From: a virus
Taxonomy: Duplodnaviria; Caudoviricetes
IMG/VR virus record: IMGVR_UViG_3300037424_000375
Span: 1 to 26,157 of that record
Strand: one strand, 5' to 3'
DNA length: 26,157 bases
Part shown: in pieces, positions 984-20,740 of the stretch
Layout of the letters: every line of letters begins with the position of its first letter
Position numbering within the stretch: the stretch's first letter is position 1
Translations under genes and position numbers: made by a program
Notes under the pieces: generated by a model
Told to the model about the DNA's origin: nothing
The model's input: only the letters and a program-made list of their open reading frames with translations
Databases searched by the model: none

Positions 984-2732
984 ATGTGGCAGGAAGACCT
1001 TGCGTCTGAGCTCGCCTCATCAAAACCCTCTGAGCGCAGGCAGATTTTATCTCATTATCAGAAAATGTCGGGCCGGACGAAACAGAGTCTTTATCGCATT
1101 GCCGCTTGTTATGGGTTCGATGCGGAAAGAAGAAGCAGGGCTGACCGGGACAAATCGAAATCCGAGCTAACACCGGAGCAAGTTGAGTTCGTCGCGGCCC
1201 TGATCTACGAGACGCGGCGCGAAGTGAAAGGACCGATTATGCCCGTGGCCAGGGCCATCCAGATCGCAGAGGACAGCGGCATCATCCAACCCGGCCAGGT
1301 TGCTCCATCAACGATGAATGGCCTGCTCAGGCGAAGACAGATATCAAAGACGCATCAGAAAGCTGAACCTCCTCATACGTCCATGCGCTCGCTTCATCCG
1401 AACCATGTCCATGTCTTCGATGCTTCGGTCTGTATCCAATATTACCTAAAGAGCGGCGGTCTCGCCGTGATCGACGAGCGGGAGTTCTATAAGAACAAGC
1501 CAGACAACTTTAAGAAAATCAAGGAGCGAATCCTTCGTTATGTCATCACCGATCATTTCTCGGGGACTTTCTACTTCCGATACTACAACACCACGGGTGA
1601 GACGCAGGCCAATCTTTGGGATTTTTTGAAGGAGGCGTGGACCGGAATTGGTTCGGAGAAATTCCCGTTTCGCGGTGTGCCGTTCGAATTGCTGATGGAT
1701 ACGGGCGCCGCGAACAAGGCAAAAGCTATGACGACGTTTCTCAATCGGGGATTAGACGTAAAGACACCCGAGGGGATGCCCTACAACGCGCGCAGACAGG
1801 GGTCGGCGGAGAGCACCCATAACATTATAGAGGAGTGGTTCGAATCGGGCCTCCGGATCCAGCCGGCGACGTGTGAAGACGAAATGAATGTGTGGGCCAG
1901 GGACTTCATGATCTGGTATAACGCCACGCAAAATCACACACGTCATGGTCTGCCGAGAATCCAGTGCTGGCTCCTTATTCAGGAGGGTCAGCTTCGGGAG
2001 ATCCCGGAGGAGCGTATTCTCCAGGATCTCTGGGCAAATCCAGAGGAAGAGCGGACGGTGAGCGGGGACTGTACGATCAGCTTTCAGGGCAAGGACTATA
2101 ATCTCAAATATATTCCCGGCCTATTTCGCGGGGCGAAGGTGATGGTAATCAAGAAACCCTTCAGGCTCCCCAGGATCGACGTTTCCTATAACGAGCAGAT
2201 CTATGAGGCCTCGCCCGTGGAGATGCTGCCGGCGGAGCTCGGGGGCTTCAGGGCCGACGCGGCGATCATCGGGCAGGAATACAAATCGCCTCCGGAGACG
2301 CTCACCCAGCAGGCCATCAAGCGATTCGACAACATGGCCTATGGTGAGGACCCTTTGACCGTTCGACAGGCTCACGGCTCAGGGCGAACGGCACATAAGA
2401 ATCAGGTCCCATTTGCCGGTCTCAAAGTTTTCGGCCATCAGGCCGATAAGGTCGGGAACCTATCATTTATAGAGAAGCGGGGAACTCCCATTGAAGTCGA
2501 TCACGCGATTGCCGAGACGCAAATCTCCTTCACCGAGTTTTTGAAAAGGCTGATTCAGCGGGTGGGGCCGATCTCAAAGGAGATGAACCAGGAGCTGAGG
2601 GGGAAATACGGAGAGGCGATCAGCGTTGAGGAAGCGGAACGCGTAATTAATGACGCGGAGACCCGCCTACATCAAGATTTCGGCGCGGCAGGCGGCGACA
2701 CGGAGAAAAAGGCAATAGGCAATGGTCAATGA
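984..2732 (+). CDS. Mu-like DDE transposase (transposase A)
   Basis: GAGGAGG RBS; 'HPNHVHVFDASV', 'ITDHFSG', 'GVPFELLMDTGAAN', 'NARRQGSAESTHNIIE' integrase-core motifs; C-terminal 'RTVSGDCTISFQGKDY' Mu-transposase beta-barrel. Confidence 0.93.
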   Translation: MWQEDLASELASSKPSERRQILSHYQKMSGRTKQSLYRIAACYGFDAERRSRADRDKSKSELTPEQVEFVAALIYETRREVKGPIMPVARAIQIAEDSGIIQPGQVAPSTMNGLLRRRQISKTHQKAEPPHTSMRSLHPNHVHVFDASVCIQYYLKSGGLAVIDEREFYKNKPDNFKKIKERILRYVITDHFSGTFYFRYYNTTGETQANLWDFLKEAWTGIGSEKFPFRGVPFELLMDTGAANKAKAMTTFLNRGLDVKTPEGMPYNARRQGSAESTHNIIEEWFESGLRIQPATCEDEMNVWARDFMIWYNATQNHTRHGLPRIQCWLLIQEGQLREIPEERILQDLWANPEEERTVSGDCTISFQGKDYNLKYIPGLFRGAKVMVIKKPFRLPRIDVSYNEQIYEASPVEMLPAELGGFRADAAIIGQEYKSPPETLTQQAIKRFDNMAYGEDPLTVRQAHGSGRTAHKNQVPFAGLKVFGHQADKVGNLSFIEKRGTPIEVDHAIAETQISFTEFLKRLIQRVGPISKEMNQELRGKYGEAISVEEAERVINDAETRLHQDFGAAGGDTEKKAIGNGQ

Positions 2733-2799
2733 AAACATCTCTGTAATCGTGTTTTTTAAATCGGCGTAATCACGCGAAGCGGAAAGGAGGTGAAACCGA

Positions 2800-4053
2800 A
2801 TGACTACAAGTGGAGTCGCAGGACGCAAGGCGTATCAGATGCCGGAGAAGACCATCCTTTTAAAAGAGCTTATTTTGCAGTGCGGCATCAACCAGGCCGC
2901 AATCTCGGAAGCGGCGGATGTTTCCCGGACCTTACTTAATCTCACTCTAAATAGGGGTTACATCCCGCCCACATCCAAGGGTTTTCAAAAGAAAATTGAA
3001 AATTATATTTCCAGGAATCAAAAAGCCATGCACTGGCTCATCGAGCGCGGGCTCCAGGTCAGCGACATCTGGACCTCGGTCGACGCCCCGATCAAAAAGC
3101 ACCGCATGCCAGCGGGCCAGGGAGCGAAGGTCGCCGCCGGGTACAAAAAACAAGCATTCGTTCAGGGCGATCCCTCGAAGATCGTCATTCATTGGGAGGT
3201 TGAAATGATCACAGCAGAGGCAATGAAACACTACAAGGTTTTTCGTAACCCGTTTATTGACGACATTCAGAAAGACTCGGATATCTATATGTCCGAGGAG
3301 CACCGCTACATCGAGGCCGCCATGATCGATTGCGCGCGGCACGGCGGATTTCTGGCCGTGATCGGCGAGGTCGGGTCCGGCAAATCGGTCATGAGGCGGA
3401 AAGTCGTCGAGCAGCTCCGGAAGGACGGAGACGTGCTCATCATCTATCCTCAGATCATTGACAAGACCCGTCTCAACGCGAGCTCGATCTGCGACGCCAT
3501 CATCATGGACATCTCCAGCGACAAGCCCAAGATCAAGCTCGAGCAAAAGACCAGGCAGTGCCAGAAGCTTCTCCTGGAGAGGTCGAAGCAAAACTTCCGA
3601 AGCTGCCTGATGATCGAAGAGGCCCACGATGTCAACATCAATACCTTGAAATATCTCAAACGGTTCTACGAGATGGAGGACGGCTACAGAAAGCTCCTGG
3701 GCATCGTCCTGATCGGGCAGACGGAGCTGAAGCACGCCTTTAACGAGGCCCAGCACGTGGACCTGCGCGAGGTGATCCGGCGCGTCCAGATTGCCGAGAT
3801 AGCGGGCCTGAATGGCCACATCAAGGAATATCTGAATCTGAAATTCAAGCGCGTCGGGGCCGAGCTGGATAAGATCTTCACGACAGAGGCGCTGACGGCC
3901 CTGGGGAAAAGGCTCACGTCGATGGACCGGCAGAGTAAAAGGATCTCTCACGCCTATCCGCTGCTCGTCAATAACTACGCGGCCAAAGCCATGAACATGG
4001 CGTGCGAGATGGGCGAGACGCGGGTCACGGAAGACGTGGTGATGGCGATTTGA
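2800..4053 (+). CDS. Transposition ATPase (MuB-equivalent, ExeA/AAA_22 family) with an N-terminal HTH domain
   Basis: AAGGAGGT RBS; Walker A 'GEVGSGKS', Walker B 'LMIEEAH', 'VLIGQTEL'; directly follows the transposase. Confidence 0.92.
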   Translation: MTTSGVAGRKAYQMPEKTILLKELILQCGINQAAISEAADVSRTLLNLTLNRGYIPPTSKGFQKKIENYISRNQKAMHWLIERGLQVSDIWTSVDAPIKKHRMPAGQGAKVAAGYKKQAFVQGDPSKIVIHWEVEMITAEAMKHYKVFRNPFIDDIQKDSDIYMSEEHRYIEAAMIDCARHGGFLAVIGEVGSGKSVMRRKVVEQLRKDGDVLIIYPQIIDKTRLNASSICDAIIMDISSDKPKIKLEQKTRQCQKLLLERSKQNFRSCLMIEEAHDVNINTLKYLKRFYEMEDGYRKLLGIVLIGQTELKHAFNEAQHVDLREVIRRVQIAEIAGLNGHIKEYLNLKFKRVGAELDKIFTTEALTALGKRLTSMDRQSKRISHAYPLLVNNYAAKAMNMACEMGETRVTEDVVMAI

Positions 4054-5677: not shown

Positions 5678-6526
5678 ATGACCGCTGCCTTTCCATATAT
5701 CGGTGGAAAGAATCGAATCGCCCCTCAAATCAGCGTCTATTTGCACGCGACTGGCGGGGATTGCCTGGTTGATGTTTTTGGGGGGAGCGCGGCAGTGCTT
5801 CTCAACTCTGGATTTGAGAAACGAGTTTACAATGATATCGACGGCGACCTGGTGAACTTGTTCAAGGTGATCGGCGACGATCATTTCCGGCCAGCGCTTC
5901 TCAAACTAATCCGGCTTACTCCTCCATCGAGAGAGATCTTTGAGGACCATTACAGAGATTATGTGGCGCATGGTTTATCTTTCGGTCACGTAAGCGATCC
6001 GGTTGAGAGAGCCTTCAGGATCTTCTACAGGCTTCAGTTCGCTTTCGGCGGCAAATTGAGATCCGGAGGTTTCACGCTCAGCACCGGCGACAGAACCACG
6101 ATCAAAGAGATTCTCAGGTATCGGAATTCTTTGAAGCGACTGGCGGGGCTGGCTGGGTTCTTTAGAGATACGGCGATTGAGCATCTGGATTTTTCGGAAT
6201 GTATCAGCATTTACGGGCGACGCTCTGGTGTGGTTCTCTTTGTCGATCCGCCTTATATCGGCACCGAAAATTATTATTCCAGGCAACTCTCAAGGGCCGA
6301 TCATGCTTTTTTAGCCCATCAGTTGGCCTGCTGTAAGGCCCCCGTCGTCTGCACCTATTATGACGCTCCGGAAATCCGGGAGCTATATTCCGAGGCCAAA
6401 TGGCAATGGTCGCCAATAGAGACGATCAAGAACAGCCAGAGAAAAGGCGGACAAAACAAAGCGATAGAATGGGTCCTGAGCAGGAAAACGGCCATAGCGA
6501 ATGACAGAAAACCTAACCCCACTTGA
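5678..6526 (+). CDS. DNA adenine methyltransferase (Dam/D12 class)
   Basis: 'FPYIGGK', motif I 'VDVFGGSAAV', 'YNDID', catalytic 'DPPY'. Confidence 0.93.
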   Translation: MTAAFPYIGGKNRIAPQISVYLHATGGDCLVDVFGGSAAVLLNSGFEKRVYNDIDGDLVNLFKVIGDDHFRPALLKLIRLTPPSREIFEDHYRDYVAHGLSFGHVSDPVERAFRIFYRLQFAFGGKLRSGGFTLSTGDRTTIKEILRYRNSLKRLAGLAGFFRDTAIEHLDFSECISIYGRRSGVVLFVDPPYIGTENYYSRQLSRADHAFLAHQLACCKAPVVCTYYDAPEIRELYSEAKWQWSPIETIKNSQRKGGQNKAIEWVLSRKTAIANDRKPNPT

Positions 6527-11281: not shown

Positions 11282-11998
11282 ATGAGTATTCCCAAAAAGC
11301 TCGACAAAGCCCTGGCCAACTCTCCAATCATGGAGATCAACGAATCGTTCAAAGGGCTTTTCATCTCAGACCTACACATGGGAGTCGGAGACGACGCAGA
11401 CGATTTCGGACCGAACGCTGAGCTGTGCCTCTCGGTGCTCAGGCGGCACGTGGCGGAGGGCTACCGGGTCTTCCTTCTCGGGGACGGATACGAACTTTGG
11501 GAAAACCCAGGATATGAGGCCGTCCGGGAAACCTATTCTGAGCTTTGCAATCTCCTGACCTGGAGGGCCGACAGACTATCGGGCAATCACGATCAAGACC
11601 TTTTTCTGCCCCAGGCGTATGTCCTTCGCTACGGGAAAACCGGGCGGCGGATCCTGATCCTTCACGGCCACCAGGGAAATTTTTTCTGTGACGAAGGGTA
11701 TCCCCTCGGCAGGTTCTTCGTGAGAAACATCTGGCGAAATCTTCAGTTGATCGGCTTTCGGGATCCGACGACGGCCATGAAAGACAAAAATCCGAAAAAG
11801 CACGAAGGGACCAGGGCTGCTTTCCATGACTGGGCCACGTCAAGAAAAGAAACTGTGATTTTCGGCCACACGCATTTCCCGGAGAGCGACCCGCCGTACT
11901 ACTGGAACACCGGGAGCTGGGTCGGCGAGGGCGGCCACGGGGTTGTTGTAGAAGGCGATCAGATATCGCTGAAAACTTTTACGAAGGAGGGCACATGA
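11282..11998 (+). CDS. Calcineurin-like metallophosphoesterase (LpxH-like motif set)
   Basis: 'ISDLH', 'LGD', 'GNHD', 'HGH', 'GHTH', 'NTGSW'. Confidence 0.88.
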   Translation: MSIPKKLDKALANSPIMEINESFKGLFISDLHMGVGDDADDFGPNAELCLSVLRRHVAEGYRVFLLGDGYELWENPGYEAVRETYSELCNLLTWRADRLSGNHDQDLFLPQAYVLRYGKTGRRILILHGHQGNFFCDEGYPLGRFFVRNIWRNLQLIGFRDPTTAMKDKNPKKHEGTRAAFHDWATSRKETVIFGHTHFPESDPPYYWNTGSWVGEGGHGVVVEGDQISLKTFTKEGT

Positions 11999-13786: not shown

Positions 13787-15310
13787 GTGGCGAGCAAGAA
13801 AGAGATCCAACAATTAATCAATCGCGTCAGATCCAGGATGCGGGCCGAGGCAAAGCCCTTTGAGGATACTTCCCCCGAGGCCAGAGCCGAGAGGATCCGC
13901 CGCTCGAAGGAAGATGATTTTTATTTTTTCAAAACTTACCTCCCTCATTATTTTCCGACCGAGAGCGCCGAATTTCACGAAGAGGTTGTCGAGCTTTCGA
14001 AAATCCAGGACGAGCCGGTGATTATCGCCGCGCCCCGCGAGCACGCGAAATCGACGCTCTGCACCTTTGCCATTCCCGTCGCCGATATCTGTCTCGAGAG
14101 GAAGCACTTCATTATCATCGTTTCCGATACCGAGGACCTGGCCGCCGACTTCAACGTATTCATCCAGCTCGAGCTCCAGGAGAACGAGCGGATCCTCGCC
14201 GATTTCGGATACCTCAAAGGCTACAAGTGGGAAGCAAAAGACTTCACCACGAGAAATGGGATCCGGGTCAAGGCCCGGGGCCGTGGCCAGAGGGTCAGAG
14301 GGATTCGAAACCGCCAGTACCGGCCCGACCGCGTCATCATCGACGATTTCGAAAACGACAAGAACGTCAAGAACCCGAAGCTCATCAAGGAGGCCGTAGA
14401 CTGGATTCTCACCGCTGTGCTCGGATCTCTTGCCGAGGGATATTCCCTGATGATGATCGGCACCGTGCTCGCAAAGAAATCGGTGCTGACCTGGTTTCTC
14501 AATGCCAAAGACGAGAACGAGCAACCTCTCTATATCAGCCGCGTCTATAAGGCGATCAAAGACGACGGTACGCCGCTGTGGCCTGCGAAGTGGCCCATCG
14601 AGAGGCTTCTCAAAAAAAAGCGCCAGATCGGGACGCTCAATTTCAACCGCGAATTTCAAAACGACCCGAAGGACGAAGAGGGTGTCTTCCGTGAGGAGTG
14701 GATCCGATATTACACGCCGGAAGAGATCGCGGGAAAGGCGCTCGCGGTCTATGAGGCCATCGACCCATCGGTCGGGGCGAATGAATCTTCGGATTACCGC
14801 GCTTTCGTAAAGATCGGACGCGCGCGCGATGGCACGATCTATGTGCTTTCAGCCGACATCAAGAAGCGCTCCGTTGACTCGCTCGTTTCCACTGAATACA
14901 TCCGGCAGGCAGAGCAGCCTGCGATCATCATCCGTCTTGAGACGGTGGCATTTCAGGCGGTCTTGATGATCCTCTTCAACGCGGAGGCACAGACACGCGG
15001 GATTCATTTACCAATACAAGAAATCAAACACACGGTCAACAAGGAGACCCGGATCACCGGGCTCTCTCCTTTTGTCGAGCGCGGAGTGATCCGTTTCAGA
15101 AAAGGCCACTCCGATCAGGACCTCCTGGTCGAGCAATTGATTTATTTTCCGTCAACGACGGTGAATAATGATGGCCCCGATGGGCTTGAGATGTCGGTCT
15201 CCGCCGCCCAGCAATACGCCGGATGGCATGTCGAGCACAAATCCACCGGCAAAAGGGTCGGCCATGAGATGGGCGATTATCTCCCCGAGGGAGAGGCGGT
15301 GAATTATTAA
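13787..15310 (+). CDS. terL: Terminase large subunit
   Basis: Walker A 'APREHAKST', 'RG...RPDRVIIDDFEND', 'IGT' coupling motif, nuclease 'AIDPS' and 'NDGPDG'. Confidence 0.93.
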   Translation: MASKKEIQQLINRVRSRMRAEAKPFEDTSPEARAERIRRSKEDDFYFFKTYLPHYFPTESAEFHEEVVELSKIQDEPVIIAAPREHAKSTLCTFAIPVADICLERKHFIIIVSDTEDLAADFNVFIQLELQENERILADFGYLKGYKWEAKDFTTRNGIRVKARGRGQRVRGIRNRQYRPDRVIIDDFENDKNVKNPKLIKEAVDWILTAVLGSLAEGYSLMMIGTVLAKKSVLTWFLNAKDENEQPLYISRVYKAIKDDGTPLWPAKWPIERLLKKKRQIGTLNFNREFQNDPKDEEGVFREEWIRYYTPEEIAGKALAVYEAIDPSVGANESSDYRAFVKIGRARDGTIYVLSADIKKRSVDSLVSTEYIRQAEQPAIIIRLETVAFQAVLMILFNAEAQTRGIHLPIQEIKHTVNKETRITGLSPFVERGVIRFRKGHSDQDLLVEQLIYFPSTTVNNDGPDGLEMSVSAAQQYAGWHVEHKSTGKRVGHEMGDYLPEGEAVNY

Positions 15311-15486
15311 AAATCAAATTCAATTTGAAAAAATGGCACTCTTCAAGATTTTGCGTTCTAAGGGCATTAATTTCGGAAGGGGGTATCTAACCCCCAAACC
15401 CGTTGACAACCCTGTCAACCCTATGTCAACCCCGCGTAGGATTGAAATTTGAAAGGGGTCACCACCCGGAAAAGGGCATTTTAAAG

Positions 15487-16980
15487 ATGGCGACACGGAA
15501 AGAGAAGAAAAAGCCCGAGCTTCAGCAGATCGCGACGGTCCAAAACGACATCACTCTGAACTACATCGGGAAGGTCCTGCTCAACCCTGATCCGATCCTT
15601 TCCGGCGAGGCCAGGGCTCAGGGGATCAAGGCCTTCGAGGACATGCTTTTTGAGGCGCGCGTCTTCTCCGAAATGCAAAAGCGAAAGCTCGCCGTCATCG
15701 GCAAGGAGTGGGACATCGAGCCCGCAAGCGACGATCCGCAGGACGTGAAGGTCGCAGACTTCGTCAAAGAAGTTTTCAAAAGATTTTCATACGACACCGC
15801 CCGCCAGGCGCTTCTCTCCGGCATCGTCACCGGGTTCAAGCCGGGAGAGGTGATGTGGGATTATTCGGAGGGCGATATCTGGATCAAAGGGATCAACGGA
15901 ATTTCGCCGCGGAGGTTCGCTTTCGATCTCGAGGGCAGGCTGCGGCTCCTCACCTGGGGAAATATGATCGAGGGCGTAGAGGTCCCGGAGAAAAAATTCA
16001 TCGTCTTCAGAAATCCCAGCAACAACGGCTCTCCTTATGGAGACGGGATCGGGCGGGCATTATATTGGCCGATCTGGTTCAAGAAAAACGGGGTGAAGTT
16101 CTGGGCGGTCTTCCTCGACAAATTCGGCCAGCCCACTCCCTGGGGAAAATATCCTCCGGGAACGACGGAGGACGACCAGACCAAGCTTCTCGACTCGCTC
16201 AAAGCGATGCAGACCGACCAGGCGATCATCACGCCGGATAACATGACCGTGGATCTTCTTGAGGCCGCGCGCGCGAGCTCGGTTGACTCTTACGATAAGT
16301 GGGAAAAATTCTGGAACGACGCCATCACCTTCATCATCCTCGGCCAGACGGCGACGACCGAGGGCACGCCCGGAAAGCTCGGGAGCGAAGAGGCCCGGTC
16401 CGATATCCGCGAAGAGATCGTCAAGGCCGACGCCGATCTGCTCTCCGAATGTCAGAACGATTTTCTGATCCCCTGGATCTGCGATTACAACTTTCCGGCG
16501 CTGAAGAAATATCCGAAGGTCTGGGTCCGCACGGAACCTCCCGATGACCTCGATAGGCTGTCCAAAGTCCACCAGGTCGTCTTGCCCTGGCTCGATGATG
16601 TTCCGAAAACTTTTATTCACGAGACCTATTCGATCCCGGTCGCCGAGGCGGGAGAGGACGTTGTGACGGTTCAGAAATCGTCCCCCCTTCCGCTCGGATT
16701 CGCGGAGAGTAGAAGATCTTTCGCCGGGTCGCCGGATCGCCCCCTCACCCCTTCGTCTTCTCAGGCGCAGATCGACTCCTTGATCGAGCGGAGCCTGAAG
16801 GAGGGTGGCATCTCGGAGTTTCACGATTCGCTGATGAAGATCATCGATGATGCGACAAGCCTTGAGGATCTCCAGGCGAAAATCCTTGAGCGGTTCAAGG
16901 ACCTGGATCTGGAGAAGATGAAAGAGATGATGGGCCGCTCTTTTTTTATAGCGAACTTACTTGGAAGGATTTCAAAATGA
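15487..16980 (+). CDS. Portal protein (Mu gp29, DUF935)
   Basis: 'SPYGDG..RALYW...F.DKFGQP..WGKY', 'ILGQTATT', 'VKADADLL'; start moved to ATG 15487. Confidence 0.93.
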   Translation: MATRKEKKKPELQQIATVQNDITLNYIGKVLLNPDPILSGEARAQGIKAFEDMLFEARVFSEMQKRKLAVIGKEWDIEPASDDPQDVKVADFVKEVFKRFSYDTARQALLSGIVTGFKPGEVMWDYSEGDIWIKGINGISPRRFAFDLEGRLRLLTWGNMIEGVEVPEKKFIVFRNPSNNGSPYGDGIGRALYWPIWFKKNGVKFWAVFLDKFGQPTPWGKYPPGTTEDDQTKLLDSLKAMQTDQAIITPDNMTVDLLEAARASSVDSYDKWEKFWNDAITFIILGQTATTEGTPGKLGSEEARSDIREEIVKADADLLSECQNDFLIPWICDYNFPALKKYPKVWVRTEPPDDLDRLSKVHQVVLPWLDDVPKTFIHETYSIPVAEAGEDVVTVQKSSPLPLGFAESRRSFAGSPDRPLTPSSSQAQIDSLIERSLKEGGISEFHDSLMKIIDDATSLEDLQAKILERFKDLDLEKMKEMMGRSFFIANLLGRISK

Positions 16981-17008
16981 TTTTCGCTATGCCCTATGCG
17001 AGGTTCTG

Positions 17009-17683
17009 ATGGTTACTGAATGGGGTCCACTCCCTTTCGACGAGGCGATAGATTTTTTCAGGGGCAAGGTCCCGATGACGATGGATGAATTTCTCGACCT
17101 CGCAAAAGAATCGCGCGTCAGGGCCTTCTCGGTTTCGAACGTCACGGGGATGAGCGCCCTTTCCGATATTCAAAGCTCGGTCGCAAAAGCCATTCAGGAA
17201 GGACTGAGCTTCGGAGACTGGAAAAAGCTGATCGGTAAGACGCTTCTCAATTACGGCATCGAGGGTTTTAGGATGGAGACGATCTTCCGATCCAACGTCC
17301 AGACGGCCTATCAGGTCGGCCACTATCAGCAGATGCACGATCCCGACGTTCTGAAAGACCGGCCTTACTGGAAATACGTTGCGGTGATGGACGAGCGGAC
17401 GCGGCCCGAGCATGCGCAGTGGCATGACACGGTGCTTCCGGCGGACGATCCCTGGTGGAACACTCACTACCCGCCGAATGGCTTCAATTGCCGGTGAACG
17501 GTTGTTTCCCTCTCCGGGCGGGAGGTCGAGCGCGAAGGATTGGAAGTGATGCCGTCTCCGGATGTCGAGACGTATGAGTGGGTAGATCCCAAGACTGGCG
17601 AAATCCACGATATCCCGAAGGGGATCGATCCCGGGTGGGACGTGAACGTTGGAAAGCTCGGAATGATGGCAGGCCTCGTATGA
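17009..17683 (+). CDS. Mu gpF (gp30)/SPP1 gp7-like head morphogenesis protein with in-frame TGA at codon 163 (candidate selenocysteine)
   Basis: 'RMETIFRSNVQTAY..G', 'PYWKYVAVMDERTRPEH', 'YPPNGFNCR*TVVSLS'; the frame continues 61 codons through 'IPKGIDPGWDVNVG' to TGA 17681-17683, which overlaps the gpG ATG. Confidence 0.9.
17509..17525 (+). promoter_or_regulatory. Candidate bacterial SECIS element
   Basis: CCTCTCCGGGCGGGAGG, a 17-nt hairpin starting 11 nt after the TGA, with a G-rich apical loop and a possible bulged U. Confidence 0.55.
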
Positions 17684-18120
17684 TTAAACTTTCGGTAACA
17701 CTCGATGCGGAACAGGCGAAGGCGACGCTTGGGGCGCTCAGCGGCAAGATGAAAAACATGACGCCGGTGATGAAGACCATCGGCCAAACCGTCCGCGCAT
17801 CGATTCAAAGAAATTTTGAGCAGGGAGGCAGGCCCACGGGCTGGATCAGGCTTGCTCCGGCGACGGTCGCCAAAAAAAGAAAGGGCGAAGGAAGGATCCT
17901 GATTGACAGCGCGAGGCTAAAAAACTCGATCAAGGTCCGGGCGTCGTCCGATAGAGTTGTAGTCGGGACAAACGTCGTCTACGCGGCGATTCATCATTTC
18001 GGCGGAATGGCGGGGCGCGGCCGCAAGGTGAGGATCCCGGCCAGGCCGTTTATGCTGATCCAGGACGAAGACTGGAAAGAGATCAACGAGACGGCTTCGG
18101 ATTATCTGCTTAGGTCGTAA
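17680..18120 (+). CDS. Mu gpG (gp31)-like virion morphogenesis protein
   Basis: 'NFEQGGRP.GW..L...T', 'ILIDSARL..SI', 'VGTNVVYAAIHHFGG', 'IPARPF'; ATG 17680 is coupled to the full-length gpF stop. Confidence 0.92.
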   Translation: MIKLSVTLDAEQAKATLGALSGKMKNMTPVMKTIGQTVRASIQRNFEQGGRPTGWIRLAPATVAKKRKGEGRILIDSARLKNSIKVRASSDRVVVGTNVVYAAIHHFGGMAGRGRKVRIPARPFMLIQDEDWKEINETASDYLLRS

Positions 18121-18132
18121 ATGGAGGGCAAA

Positions 18133-19260
18133 ATGTTTCCCGAATGGATCGAGATATTCAAGACCGGGACCTTGATGGACTCCAGAGGCAAAACCAGGGA
18201 GTGGACGCTCCAGGACCTAAAAGAAATTGTGGCAAACTACGACGTCGCCAAAAATCCCGCCCCGATCGTCATCGGCCACCCGGAGACCGACTCCCCGGCC
18301 TACGGCTGGGTCGAGGCCCTAAAGATCGAAGGCGACAAGCTCCTGGCTAAGCCTTTCCAGCTCGTCGACGAGTTCAAGGACTTGGTCAAGCGCGGCATCT
18401 ATAAAAAAATATCGAGCGCAATCTATCCGGGGATTATGACCTTGAAGCACGTGGGATTTCTCGGCGGCGCCGCCCCGGCGGTCAAAGGGCTCAAGCCCGT
18501 GACCTTCGGTACAAAAGAGGAGGCCTGGACCTTCGAGATGGAAACCTCTCTGTCTATAAATGATGGCGACACCACGCCCCGACCTGATGGGGGCGATACC
18601 AATAAAAAAGGAGGTATTAAAATGACAGTCAAAGAATTTATCGAAAAGATGAAGGCTTTCTTCTCGGAAGCCGAAAAGGGTCTTTCCACTGACACCGGCA
18701 CTGTCACTGTCACCGTCCCGGACACCGGTCTCAAATTCACCGAGGCCGAGGTCCAGGCCCGCGAGGCCAAGGTAAAGAAGGACGCAGAGGCCGTGCTCTT
18801 CGCCGAGAACGAAAAGCTCAAGAAGGAAAAAGAAGAGTCGGACAAGAAACTCAAAGAGATCGAGACCAAGGCCCGCAAAGACGGGATCGCCGCCTTTTGC
18901 GAGGGCCTCTGCAAAGAAGGAAAGCTCACGCCGGCGCTCCGGAAGATCATCGAACCGATCATGGTCGCGGTCTCCGACCAGGCGGCCCCGATTGAATTCT
19001 CGGAGACAGTGAAAAAGCCTGCCCTCGACGGCATCAAGGATTTTCTGACCGAGCTTCCGAAGGCCGTGACCTTCCGCGAAGTGACGCCGAAAGACGGACC
19101 GGCAGCCGGCGGATCCGCGAGCGAGAGGCTGTCGAAGCTGATCACGGCAAAGATGGGAGCTAAAAAGGATCTCTCTTACGGGGCGGCTTTTTCGGAGGTG
19201 CAGAGAGAGAATCCCGATTTGGCCAAGGAGTGCTTGGGAGAAATTAAACCCAGCGCTTGA
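18133..19260 (+). CDS. Mu gpI-like prohead protease/scaffold
   Basis: GGAGG RBS; 'WIEIFKTG', 'APIVIGHP...PAYGWV', 'YKKISS', 'LKHVGFLGGAAPAVKGL'. Confidence 0.9.
   Translation: MFPEWIEIFKTGTLMDSRGKTREWTLQDLKEIVANYDVAKNPAPIVIGHPETDSPAYGWVEALKIEGDKLLAKPFQLVDEFKDLVKRGIYKKISSAIYPGIMTLKHVGFLGGAAPAVKGLKPVTFGTKEEAWTFEMETSLSINDGDTTPRPDGGDTNKKGGIKMTVKEFIEKMKAFFSEAEKGLSTDTGTVTVTVPDTGLKFTEAEVQAREAKVKKDAEAVLFAENEKLKKEKEESDKKLKEIETKARKDGIAAFCEGLCKEGKLTPALRKIIEPIMVAVSDQAAPIEFSETVKKPALDGIKDFLTELPKAVTFREVTPKDGPAAGGSASERLSKLITAKMGAKKDLSYGAAFSEVQRENPDLAKECLGEIKPSA
18622..19260 (+). CDS. Nested in-frame scaffold protein (Mu gpZ-like)
   Basis: AAGGAGGT at 18608-18615 before the in-frame ATG 18622; charged helical product. 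Confidence 0.7.
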   Translation: MTVKEFIEKMKAFFSEAEKGLSTDTGTVTVTVPDTGLKFTEAEVQAREAKVKKDAEAVLFAENEKLKKEKEESDKKLKEIETKARKDGIAAFCEGLCKEGKLTPALRKIIEPIMVAVSDQAAPIEFSETVKKPALDGIKDFLTELPKAVTFREVTPKDGPAAGGSASERLSKLITAKMGAKKDLSYGAAFSEVQRENPDLAKECLGEIKPSA

Positions 19261-19312
19261 AACAAACAAAATCTAAACTCAAAACTTTTTGAATCAAGAA
19301 AGGAGAACACCG

Positions 19313-19714
19313 ATGGCTATTGAAAAACTTGGGACCTTGGTATCCCATCCGGCCTATGCGGACCTGAGAACTCATCAGTACAAAGTCGTGGTTCTGAAAT
19401 CGGACGGAACAGTCGGACTTCCGCTCACGGCGATCACGGCGATCCCCTATGGGATACTGCAAAACGCTCCGAATGTGGGAGAAGAGGCGGTCATCGCCCC
19501 GATCGGCTGCGGAGGGATTTCTAAAGCGGTGGCGAACGACGCCATTGCGAGGGGGGCGATCGTGGCCCTCGAATGGGTCGACGATCTTGGAGATTCGGGC
19601 AAGGTCAAAGCCGTGGCAGCGACCCAATATCCGGTCGGGCAAGTGGTCTATCCTTCAGATGCGGAGGATGATCTCTGCTCCGTGCTGCTGACCCCGATGA
19701 CGGTGAAAGCGTAA
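19313..19714 (+). CDS. Capsid cement/decoration protein (DUF2190-like)
   Basis: AAGGAG RBS; 'GILQNAPNVGEEA', 'AIARGA'; lies between scaffold and capsid genes. Confidence 0.7.
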   Translation: MAIEKLGTLVSHPAYADLRTHQYKVVVLKSDGTVGLPLTAITAIPYGILQNAPNVGEEAVIAPIGCGGISKAVANDAIARGAIVALEWVDDLGDSGKVKAVAATQYPVGQVVYPSDAEDDLCSVLLTPMTVKA

Positions 19715-19759
19715 CAATTAACGGGAAGCCTTCAGACTTCCGACGAAAGGAGAAAGACG

Positions 19760-20740
19760 ATGGCTCAACCTTTGTCAAAAACGGGAGTACCTCCCATTCT
19801 GCAGAATGTGAGCGTTCAGTATAGGAATCCGATCTATGTAGCGTCTCGGATTTTCCTTATGATCGACAACTGCCCTCCAGAAGCAAAAATCGCCCGTTAT
19901 CTCAAGGGCGCGTGGTTTCGCGACGAAGCCCAGATGAGAGGGCCCGGGGGCGAAGCCGCCCGGGGTGGCTATCCGGTAGACTTCCTCGATGTGGTCCCCA
20001 AGGAATATGCCTTCGCCAAAGAAGTTCCCGACGAAGACCGTGAAGTGGCCAACTCCCAGGGAGGCCCCCCGCTTCAGCCGGATATCGACGCTATCCAGTT
20101 CGCGACGGATAAAATTCTCATGAAAAGAGAAATCCTCTGCGCAGCGCTGATCAAGGCGACGGTCTGGTCGAGCGTCGCGGCAAGCGGCGAAGATGCCGAG
20201 GGCCTCTGGGCTCCTGCCGGGGCGACCAATACGTTCCTCGCGGACGTAGAAGCCAGGAAAACGACCATCCAGTCGGCGACGGGATTGATGCCGAACTGTC
20301 TCTTTATGGATGCGCTGACGTATAGCGCCGTCAAGGTTTGCGATTCCGTGCTCGACAAGATCAAATACACCCAAAAGGGCGTGTTGACGCCGGATCTGCT
20401 GGCGTCCATCCTCGACCTGGAGGAGGTCGTCGTCGGTCCCGCGATCTACAGCACCGCGAAGGAGTCGAAGGCCGGAACGGATTTTACGGCAGCTCAGATC
20501 TGGGCGAATACTGCCGGGAAGGGCATGGGTTTTCTCTACTACCGACCGTCCACTGCGGGATTGAAAGTCCCGGCCGCCGGATACATCGCCCGATCGGGCC
20601 TGTTTCCCGGGGGGGTCCGGGTTCAGACCTGGCGAGAGGATTCGAAACATCAGGACGTCTATGAGGCGGCCGAAAAAATTCACATCCTCGCCACGGGCCT
20701 GGATCTCGGGTTTATGTGGAAGGATACGTACTTAACCTAA
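19760..20740 (+). CDS. Major capsid protein
   Basis: AAGGAG RBS; 'LQNVSVQYRNPIYVA..IF', 'IQSATGLMPN'; size and position. Confidence 0.85.
   Translation: MAQPLSKTGVPPILQNVSVQYRNPIYVASRIFLMIDNCPPEAKIARYLKGAWFRDEAQMRGPGGEAARGGYPVDFLDVVPKEYAFAKEVPDEDREVANSQGGPPLQPDIDAIQFATDKILMKREILCAALIKATVWSSVAASGEDAEGLWAPAGATNTFLADVEARKTTIQSATGLMPNCLFMDALTYSAVKVCDSVLDKIKYTQKGVLTPDLLASILDLEEVVVGPAIYSTAKESKAGTDFTAAQIWANTAGKGMGFLYYRPSTAGLKVPAAGYIARSGLFPGGVRVQTWREDSKHQDVYEAAEKIHILATGLDLGFMWKDTYLT

Follow-up and report, generated by a model that had tools for sequence, protein, structure and literature searches.

A probable phage-encoded selenoprotein of the MuF minor head protein family

Here we describe a probable selenoprotein encoded by a bacteriophage. 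In the stretch of viral DNA that was analysed (26,157 nucleotides, hereafter the window), the gene for the gpF or MuF minor head protein carries one in-frame TGA, and on sequence comparison we put the probability that its product is a phage-encoded selenoprotein, a member of a family using host SelB, at roughly 85%. For the MuF family the selenoprotein reading is the most likely one, held with somewhat higher confidence than for the window gene alone. Support comes from the placement of the codon, the hairpin that follows it, selection on the sequence beyond it and a correlation with the hosts; how the codon is decoded we infer from what is established about Sec insertion in bacteria. The decoding mechanism is a known one, in a setting for which no earlier report was found.

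Judged by its genes, the contig belongs to a transposable phage of the Mu-like type. The genes for transposase A and the transposition protein B lie at 984..4053 on the plus strand (phrog_310, phrog_296), and A, B, gam, terminase, portal, protease, scaffold and major head genes are open frames. The gpF gene (17009..17683) sits in the head module, on the plus strand, with the portal gene on one side (15403..16980, PF06074 at 3e-99, start possibly further in) and a gpG-like neck or tail completion gene on the other (17680..18120, PF05069, phrog_26); protease I, scaffold and major head genes follow as open frames at 18121..20740 (phrog_976, phrog_673, phrog_1005). The neighbours of gpF are open and no broken genes were seen elsewhere in the window. 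No promoter- or terminator-like site was found at 16800-18300, and no tRNA gene in the window. The large terminase subunit (window 13787-15310) matches psiM2_ORF9/T7-type models and phrog_38 despite the Mu-like character of the phage, a gene for a calcineurin-like metallophosphoesterase (11282-11998) adjoins the lysis genes, and the early region holds one for a D12-class adenine methyltransferase (5678-6526). Many close relatives of the portal protein (P0133, P0134, P0140, P0144 and others) are about 700-740 residues long, some 200 more than that of the window, and these long forms are without a MuF Pfam tag.

If the internal UGA is read, gpF has 224 residues; in the databases it is stored as a 162-residue fragment (P0006). 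It matches PF04233 at 7.7e-22 (78.6 bits, cut-off 29.6), TIGR01641 as its sole NCBIfam match (60.4 bits, cut-off 39.65) and phrog_220 over residues 2-217, and, over residues 8-215, is 36% identical to gpF of phage Mu. The frame is as the initial annotation had described it: the TGA at 17495..17497 comes after YPPNGFNCR, and 61 further codons (17498..17680), the conserved C-terminal part of MuF, end in IPKGIDPGWDVNVG...LV before the terminal TGA at 17681-17683, which overlaps the gpG start at 17680 (ATGA). The special coupling to gpG that had been proposed from this overlap was rejected as a Sec-linked trait, since a stop/start overlap is similarly frequent in TGA genes (16/40) and Cys genes (41/116) and is absent in two relatives, L008 and L267. 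Among Logan contigs from two runs, none of this allele covers 17495-17497, leaving the base without read confirmation; one 229-base piece from run X2 equals window 17586-17814 with zero differences.

The TGA stands at the second Cys of a C-x-C motif, giving the predicted Sec163, and the first, Cys161, is TGC (17489..17491). This is indeed a conserved Cys, as had been claimed: among 269 proteins from databases, CxC is present in 259, eight stop exactly before a Cys and two have an intein there, and no other residue was found at these positions among the 269. MuF genes were sought with motif patterns that place TGA at a Cys, and the hits were screened by an HMM built on 53 Cys relatives. The six scans yielded 1/7, 14/17, 9/54, 15/15, 18/21 and 27/33 MuF genes per hits, the 14/17 coming from a pattern with TGA at the first Cys that was first meant as a control, and 4 of 60 relatives from a similarity search were TGA-bearing MuF genes. 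Non-MuF chance hits (6/7, 3/17, 45/54, 3/21 and 6/33 per scan) were dropped, as were L206, whose fetched part lacks the motif, and near-duplicates of at least 85% over 90 nt. This left 41 non-redundant genes, of which 28 carry TGA at the first Cys (UxC) and 13, including the window gene, carry it at the second (CxU); a profile search of 401 genomes, in which no TGA pattern was used, gave a 42nd (L417, UxC). The TGA is always at one or other Cys of CxC, the first being recoded more often than the second (29 UxC versus 13 CxU), so that 12 other genes share the window's site and 29 have TGA at the position of Cys161. Each gene has one stop within the domain and 61-321 codons beyond it, and at 38 of the 42 loci a portal, gpG or gpI match lies inside the fetched flank. 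A matched control with TGA at Trp150 or Trp159, each one transition away, gave no MuF genes (0/18 and 0/8). A contig of another phage from run X1 (at window 17483) reads G-W-G-TGA-R-C, a further UxC MuF.

The TGA form is rare overall. It was found in 0/119 typed MuF genes of an unselected viral sample; one phylum sample (41 MuF matches in 31/401 genomes) held two TGA genes, both already in the set, and a second (18 matches in 17/401 genomes) held three, one of them new. The CxU pattern was found in 0/401 genomes of the class of G006. Of the 13 proteins closest to the window's (at least 67% identity), six are full-length Cys forms and seven, its own included, end at a Cys, the codon not being visible for five of these. 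On an unrooted FastTree of 231 rows, which does not separate gains from losses, the Sec/Cys label changes 25 times. One clade (L013, L347, L214, L240, L010) has CxC, UxC and CxU with one hairpin position, and in its Cys member L010 the closing pair of the hairpin is broken.

A nonsense mutation or an assembly error in a decaying prophage is a very improbable source of such a pattern. For the window, the TGA is one base from TGC, no read spans it, and three ordinary TAG alleles away from the Cys occur in the family; set against these are 42 independent genes with TGA at Cys positions only and zero at Trp, selection downstream, a hairpin tied to the TGA and the fact that no further broken gene was seen in the window. 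For the family as a whole this explanation is close to refuted. Genome-wide reassignment of TGA to Trp, Gly or Cys, for which the stop reassignment known in phages is a precedent, deserves hardly any credence here: TGA is the terminal stop of 10 of the 16 ordinary window genes checked, A, B, gam and portal among them, and of 18 of 41 TGA-bearing MuF genes, and each MuF gene has a single in-domain TGA. The initial annotation was right that recoding is not global. Three MuF genes with TAG away from the Cys motif (L311, L332, L409) are ordinary broken genes or TAG-recoded elements.

In bacterial Sec decoding, SelB binds a hairpin within the open reading frame and delivers the Sec-tRNA. The published bSECIS model, as given in section 5 of PMC13188914 (loop of 3-9 nt whose first two positions contain G, 16-37 nt past the UGA, stem of at least 4 bp), is passed on minimum-energy folds by 21/32 TGA genes versus 49/161 Cys genes. 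A stricter rule, devised after most TGA genes had been seen, asks for a loop of 3-5 nt with G[G/U] in its first two places, five or more contiguous pairs and a loop 14-30 nt past the UGA, and is passed by 30/32 TGA genes versus 7/161 Cys genes, with 3.6 expected from synonymous shuffles. In a later-found hold-out it was passed by 7/9 TGA genes (1.8 expected) and 0/29 Cys genes, and over all genes scored by 37/41 and 7/190, four TGA genes failing; L417 passes as well, along with 0/13 of the Cys genes shown from its sample. Of the selD/fdhA UGAs in hosts of the relatives 14/15 pass the rule, and of the ordinary TGA stops of the window 0/10 do; the loops GGC, GUC and GGA are common to MuF TGA genes and these host elements. 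Homologues with TGA at the window's own Cys, which the initial annotation envisaged, exist, and among the TGA genes the stems show changes on both sides. These compensatory changes, whose counts are not phylogenetically independent, are C-G versus G-C at pair 3 in one register and, in the other, C-G versus U-A and G-C. Where close genes form a Cys/TGA pair, the stem is lost in the Cys partner. A hairpin in the window's register is present in L267, L080, L070, L072, L081 and L351. The hairpin core of L267, CUCU-GGC-AGAG at 18 nt past the TGA, is the fdhA SECIS core of Desulfobacterota-type hosts.

The minimal SECIS of E. coli fdhF is a 17-nt hairpin 11 nt past the UGA. The initial annotation had proposed a counterpart in the 17-mer at +12 to +28 past the UGA of the window gene, and its position (17509..17525) stands. 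By itself the hairpin does not exceed chance, as five folds compared with shuffles gave z of 0.6 to 1.5, which is not significant, and 25% of synonymous shuffles of the gene pass the stricter rule. The predicted SECIS has the stem CCUCUC/GGGAGG and the loop CGGGC at 17515-17519, 17 nt past the UGA. It passes the stricter rule (-7.8 kcal/mol) and fails the published model on the minimum-energy fold of free RNA, where a shifted helix is favoured and the SECIS register with its 6-bp stem has a probability of 1-4%. When the first 9-11 nt past the UGA are held unpaired as a stand-in for ribosome shielding, the register takes over as the minimum-energy fold, its lower stem at 42-55%; at 12 it is lost. 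Under the same conditions L267 (TGA) forms the stem at 0.8-1.0 and L008 (TGC) never does. Overall, the SECIS evidence is strong for the family and modest for the window's own hairpin. The bulged U that had been put forward as a key feature is not supported by comparison, for the fold common to relatives is the 6-bp stem, near-equal in energy to the bulged-U version (-7.5). E. coli fdhF-type elements have a bulged U, and their loop contains GU, according to PMC8704476; the bulged-U fold is possible in the window but with GG in the loop, and the stems of relatives and of host selD/fdhA are unbroken. Rfam gave no relevant match in 17380-17700.

These features leave some room for a family that uses Sec and a window copy that is non-working or decaying, through a weak SECIS or a present host without Sec, and that yields the 162-residue fragment. 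We regard this as unlikely. It would agree with the weak hairpin and its competing fold, with the TGC and broken hairpin of L008 and with the lack of a linked host genome for the window phage, while the hairpin is in the family register and favoured with 9-11 nt shielded, L267 combines TGA at the same site with a strong hairpin, five more of the close proteins stop at the same Cys, and the neighbouring genes are open. The nearest relative with DNA (91% amino acid identity) has TGC at the site of the window's TGA; a picture in which all close relatives have Cys and the same hairpin disagrees with L267, which has TGA, and with L008, whose hairpin is broken.

The sequence after the TGA is under purifying selection. 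Across 15 TGA-TGA pairs, some of which may have been Cys for part of their divergence, pooled pN/pS is 0.25 before the site and 0.28 after it, at a pS mostly of 0.4-0.8, and between the window gene and L267 it is 0.27 after the UGA at a pS of 0.69. AlphaFold gives residues 161 to 220 of gpF a pLDDT of 88-97 in 10-residue blocks, a confidence that follows from the Cys homologues in the alignment. Among 14 long tails past the UGA, ten contain a nuclease-like PBECR2 domain above cut-off (L213, L221, L229, L249, L260, L334, L343, L344, L352, L353), and L348 has an ART-like domain just under it. As these domains lie behind the UGA, their synthesis would depend on read-through.

The hosts of the relatives carry Sec machinery. 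Of nine host genomes of UxC genes (Desulfovibrio cuneatus DSM 11391 with the prophage gene L224, Ca. Bilophila, Desulfobacteraceae, Nitrospiraceae, Nitrospirae, Pseudomonadales, two Proteobacteria bins and WOR-3), eight have selA, selB and tRNA-Sec (66-82 bits); the ninth, the WOR-3 bin G002, is without selA and selB, and its MuF gene is on a 1.6-kb contig. With a tenth host genome of a TGA-type MuF the total for selA is 9/10, and selD with a TGA of its own was found in 5/5 host genomes tested. Control genomes with chance pattern hits have Sec machinery in 5/45 (Fisher 1e-5 versus the TGA-MuF hosts), and Sec is used by 21.5% of bacteria according to PMC5029168. Nitrospirota hosts of Cys-type MuF have selA in 10/14, so the host link is necessary and not discriminating, and most Sec-competent hosts therefore carry Cys forms. 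All ten host-linked TGA-type genes are UxC and none is CxU, the form of the window gene. Relatives of its portal protein are named from Deltaproteobacteria (70% identity over 72%) and Nitrospirae (47%), and from these names alone the host is probably in Desulfobacterota or Nitrospirota.

MuF/gp7 proteins are needed in few copies, one or two per capsid (PMC5576092). On that ground leaky read-through independent of SelB might also serve: a near-cognate Cys or Trp tRNA would read the UGA at a low rate, aided by the 3' hairpin, so that a low-copy head protein would be made in sufficient amount, or short and long forms in a set ratio. This would account for the purifying selection and for the four genes that lack a clear hairpin, yet it predicts neither a G[G/U] loop at SECIS distance like that of host selD/fdhA nor restriction to selA/selB hosts, nor the absence of TGA at Trp codons, and the base after the TGA varies (18 C, 14 A, 9 G). 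We consider it improbable. Decoding as Sec by host SelA/B/C/D, the reading proposed initially, is upheld by the Cys-only recurrence, the TGA-specific hairpin, the downstream selection and the Sec machinery of the relatives' hosts. In a Sec-competent host, a ribosome at the UGA would expose the short hairpin with its G-G or G-U loop, host SelB would deliver Sec-tRNA, Sec would go in at residue 163 and translation would run to the real stop. Either MuF Cys could be Sec, with one hairpin position serving both. So low a copy number would make inefficient Sec insertion affordable, which would explain the repeated Cys/Sec flips; frequent switching fits near-neutrality as well as a conditional benefit.

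MuF resembles bacterial fdhA/fdhF and selD in the UGA at a conserved Cys, the Cys homologues, the Sec machinery in hosts of relatives and the G-loop hairpin 15-27 nt past the UGA (consensus model in PMC13188914, section 5), and CxU and UxC motifs both occur in known bacterial selenoprotein families. It differs in being phage-encoded, in belonging to a family of virion morphogenesis proteins for which neither a redox nor an enzymatic role is known, and in having Sec at either Cys with many switches on the tree. With Mu gpF (gp30) and SPP1 gp7, the latter of which binds the portal and is packaged in virions (PMC5576092), the window protein shares the domain, the place between portal and gpG and the invariant H...PP.G..CxC, whereas one of its Cys codons is TGA and it is without the C-terminal PBECR domain of Mu gpF, which ten TGA relatives keep. 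Viral UGA-Sec genes that use host machinery are known from the glutathione peroxidases of the poxviruses molluscum contagiosum and fowlpox (PMC8310308); these are captured host enzymes with a eukaryotic SECIS, in contrast to gpF, a native phage head gene with a predicted bacterial one. A MuF entry is not among the 119 prokaryotic families in Table 1 of a 2026 catalogue (PMC13188914), in which 'phage' has 0 occurrences; phage terms are absent from the text and four supplements of deep-Sep (PMC12013277) and from the accessible parts of the text and one supplement of BSepDB (PMC13326102). The literature base also comprised SelCysML (PMC13745706, text), the Haft preprint (10.1101/2022.07.06.499078), PMC5512222, PMC10778597 and PMC3892789. 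No selenoprotein of bacteriophage origin was found in the literature and catalogues searched, most subscription papers lying outside that search.

If the Sec reading is true, MuF would be a virion component that is also a selenoprotein originating in a bacteriophage, and the CxC/His site of a very common head protein of obscure biochemistry would be marked as chemically reactive, with natural CxC, UxC and CxU alleles making it testable. The change from Cys to Sec together with a new SECIS would arise repeatedly over short evolutionary distances. TGA-type MuF genes are stored in databases as truncated proteins, and a UGA with its hairpin in MuF would predict that the host of an orphan phage contig uses Sec.

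His135 (17411..17413) is His in 231/231 aligned rows, though it is outside every search pattern, and Arg132 is kept in 228/231. We infer a metal or redox site made up of His135, Arg132, Cys161 and Sec163, in which His135 may act as a third ligand or as the catalytic partner of C161/U163; the His135/Cys161/Sec163 site of the product is most likely one for metal binding or thiol-redox chemistry. A PDB sequence search with gpF gave no match below E 0.75, Foldseek with the gpF model none at E<=0.001, and VIA a best Z of 4.7 on the N-terminal helices only, with the C-terminal part barely covered; as these comparisons gave no relevant match, fold-based support for a metal site is lacking. A bolder version, which we hold as tentative and rather doubtful, is that MuF is a native phage selenoprotein family with dozens of Sec gains, at one or the other Cys of a metal/redox site of the His-Cys-Cys kind, that the Sec form is selected and alters the chemistry of DNA packaging or ejection in anoxic sulfidic hosts, and that the output both of infectious virions and of MuF's C-terminal nuclease domains depends on host SelB and selenium. 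In two database proteins (P0101 and P0329), inteins with Hint domains begin exactly at the first Cys of the MuF CxC, the equivalent of Cys161, a location that would fit an essential site.
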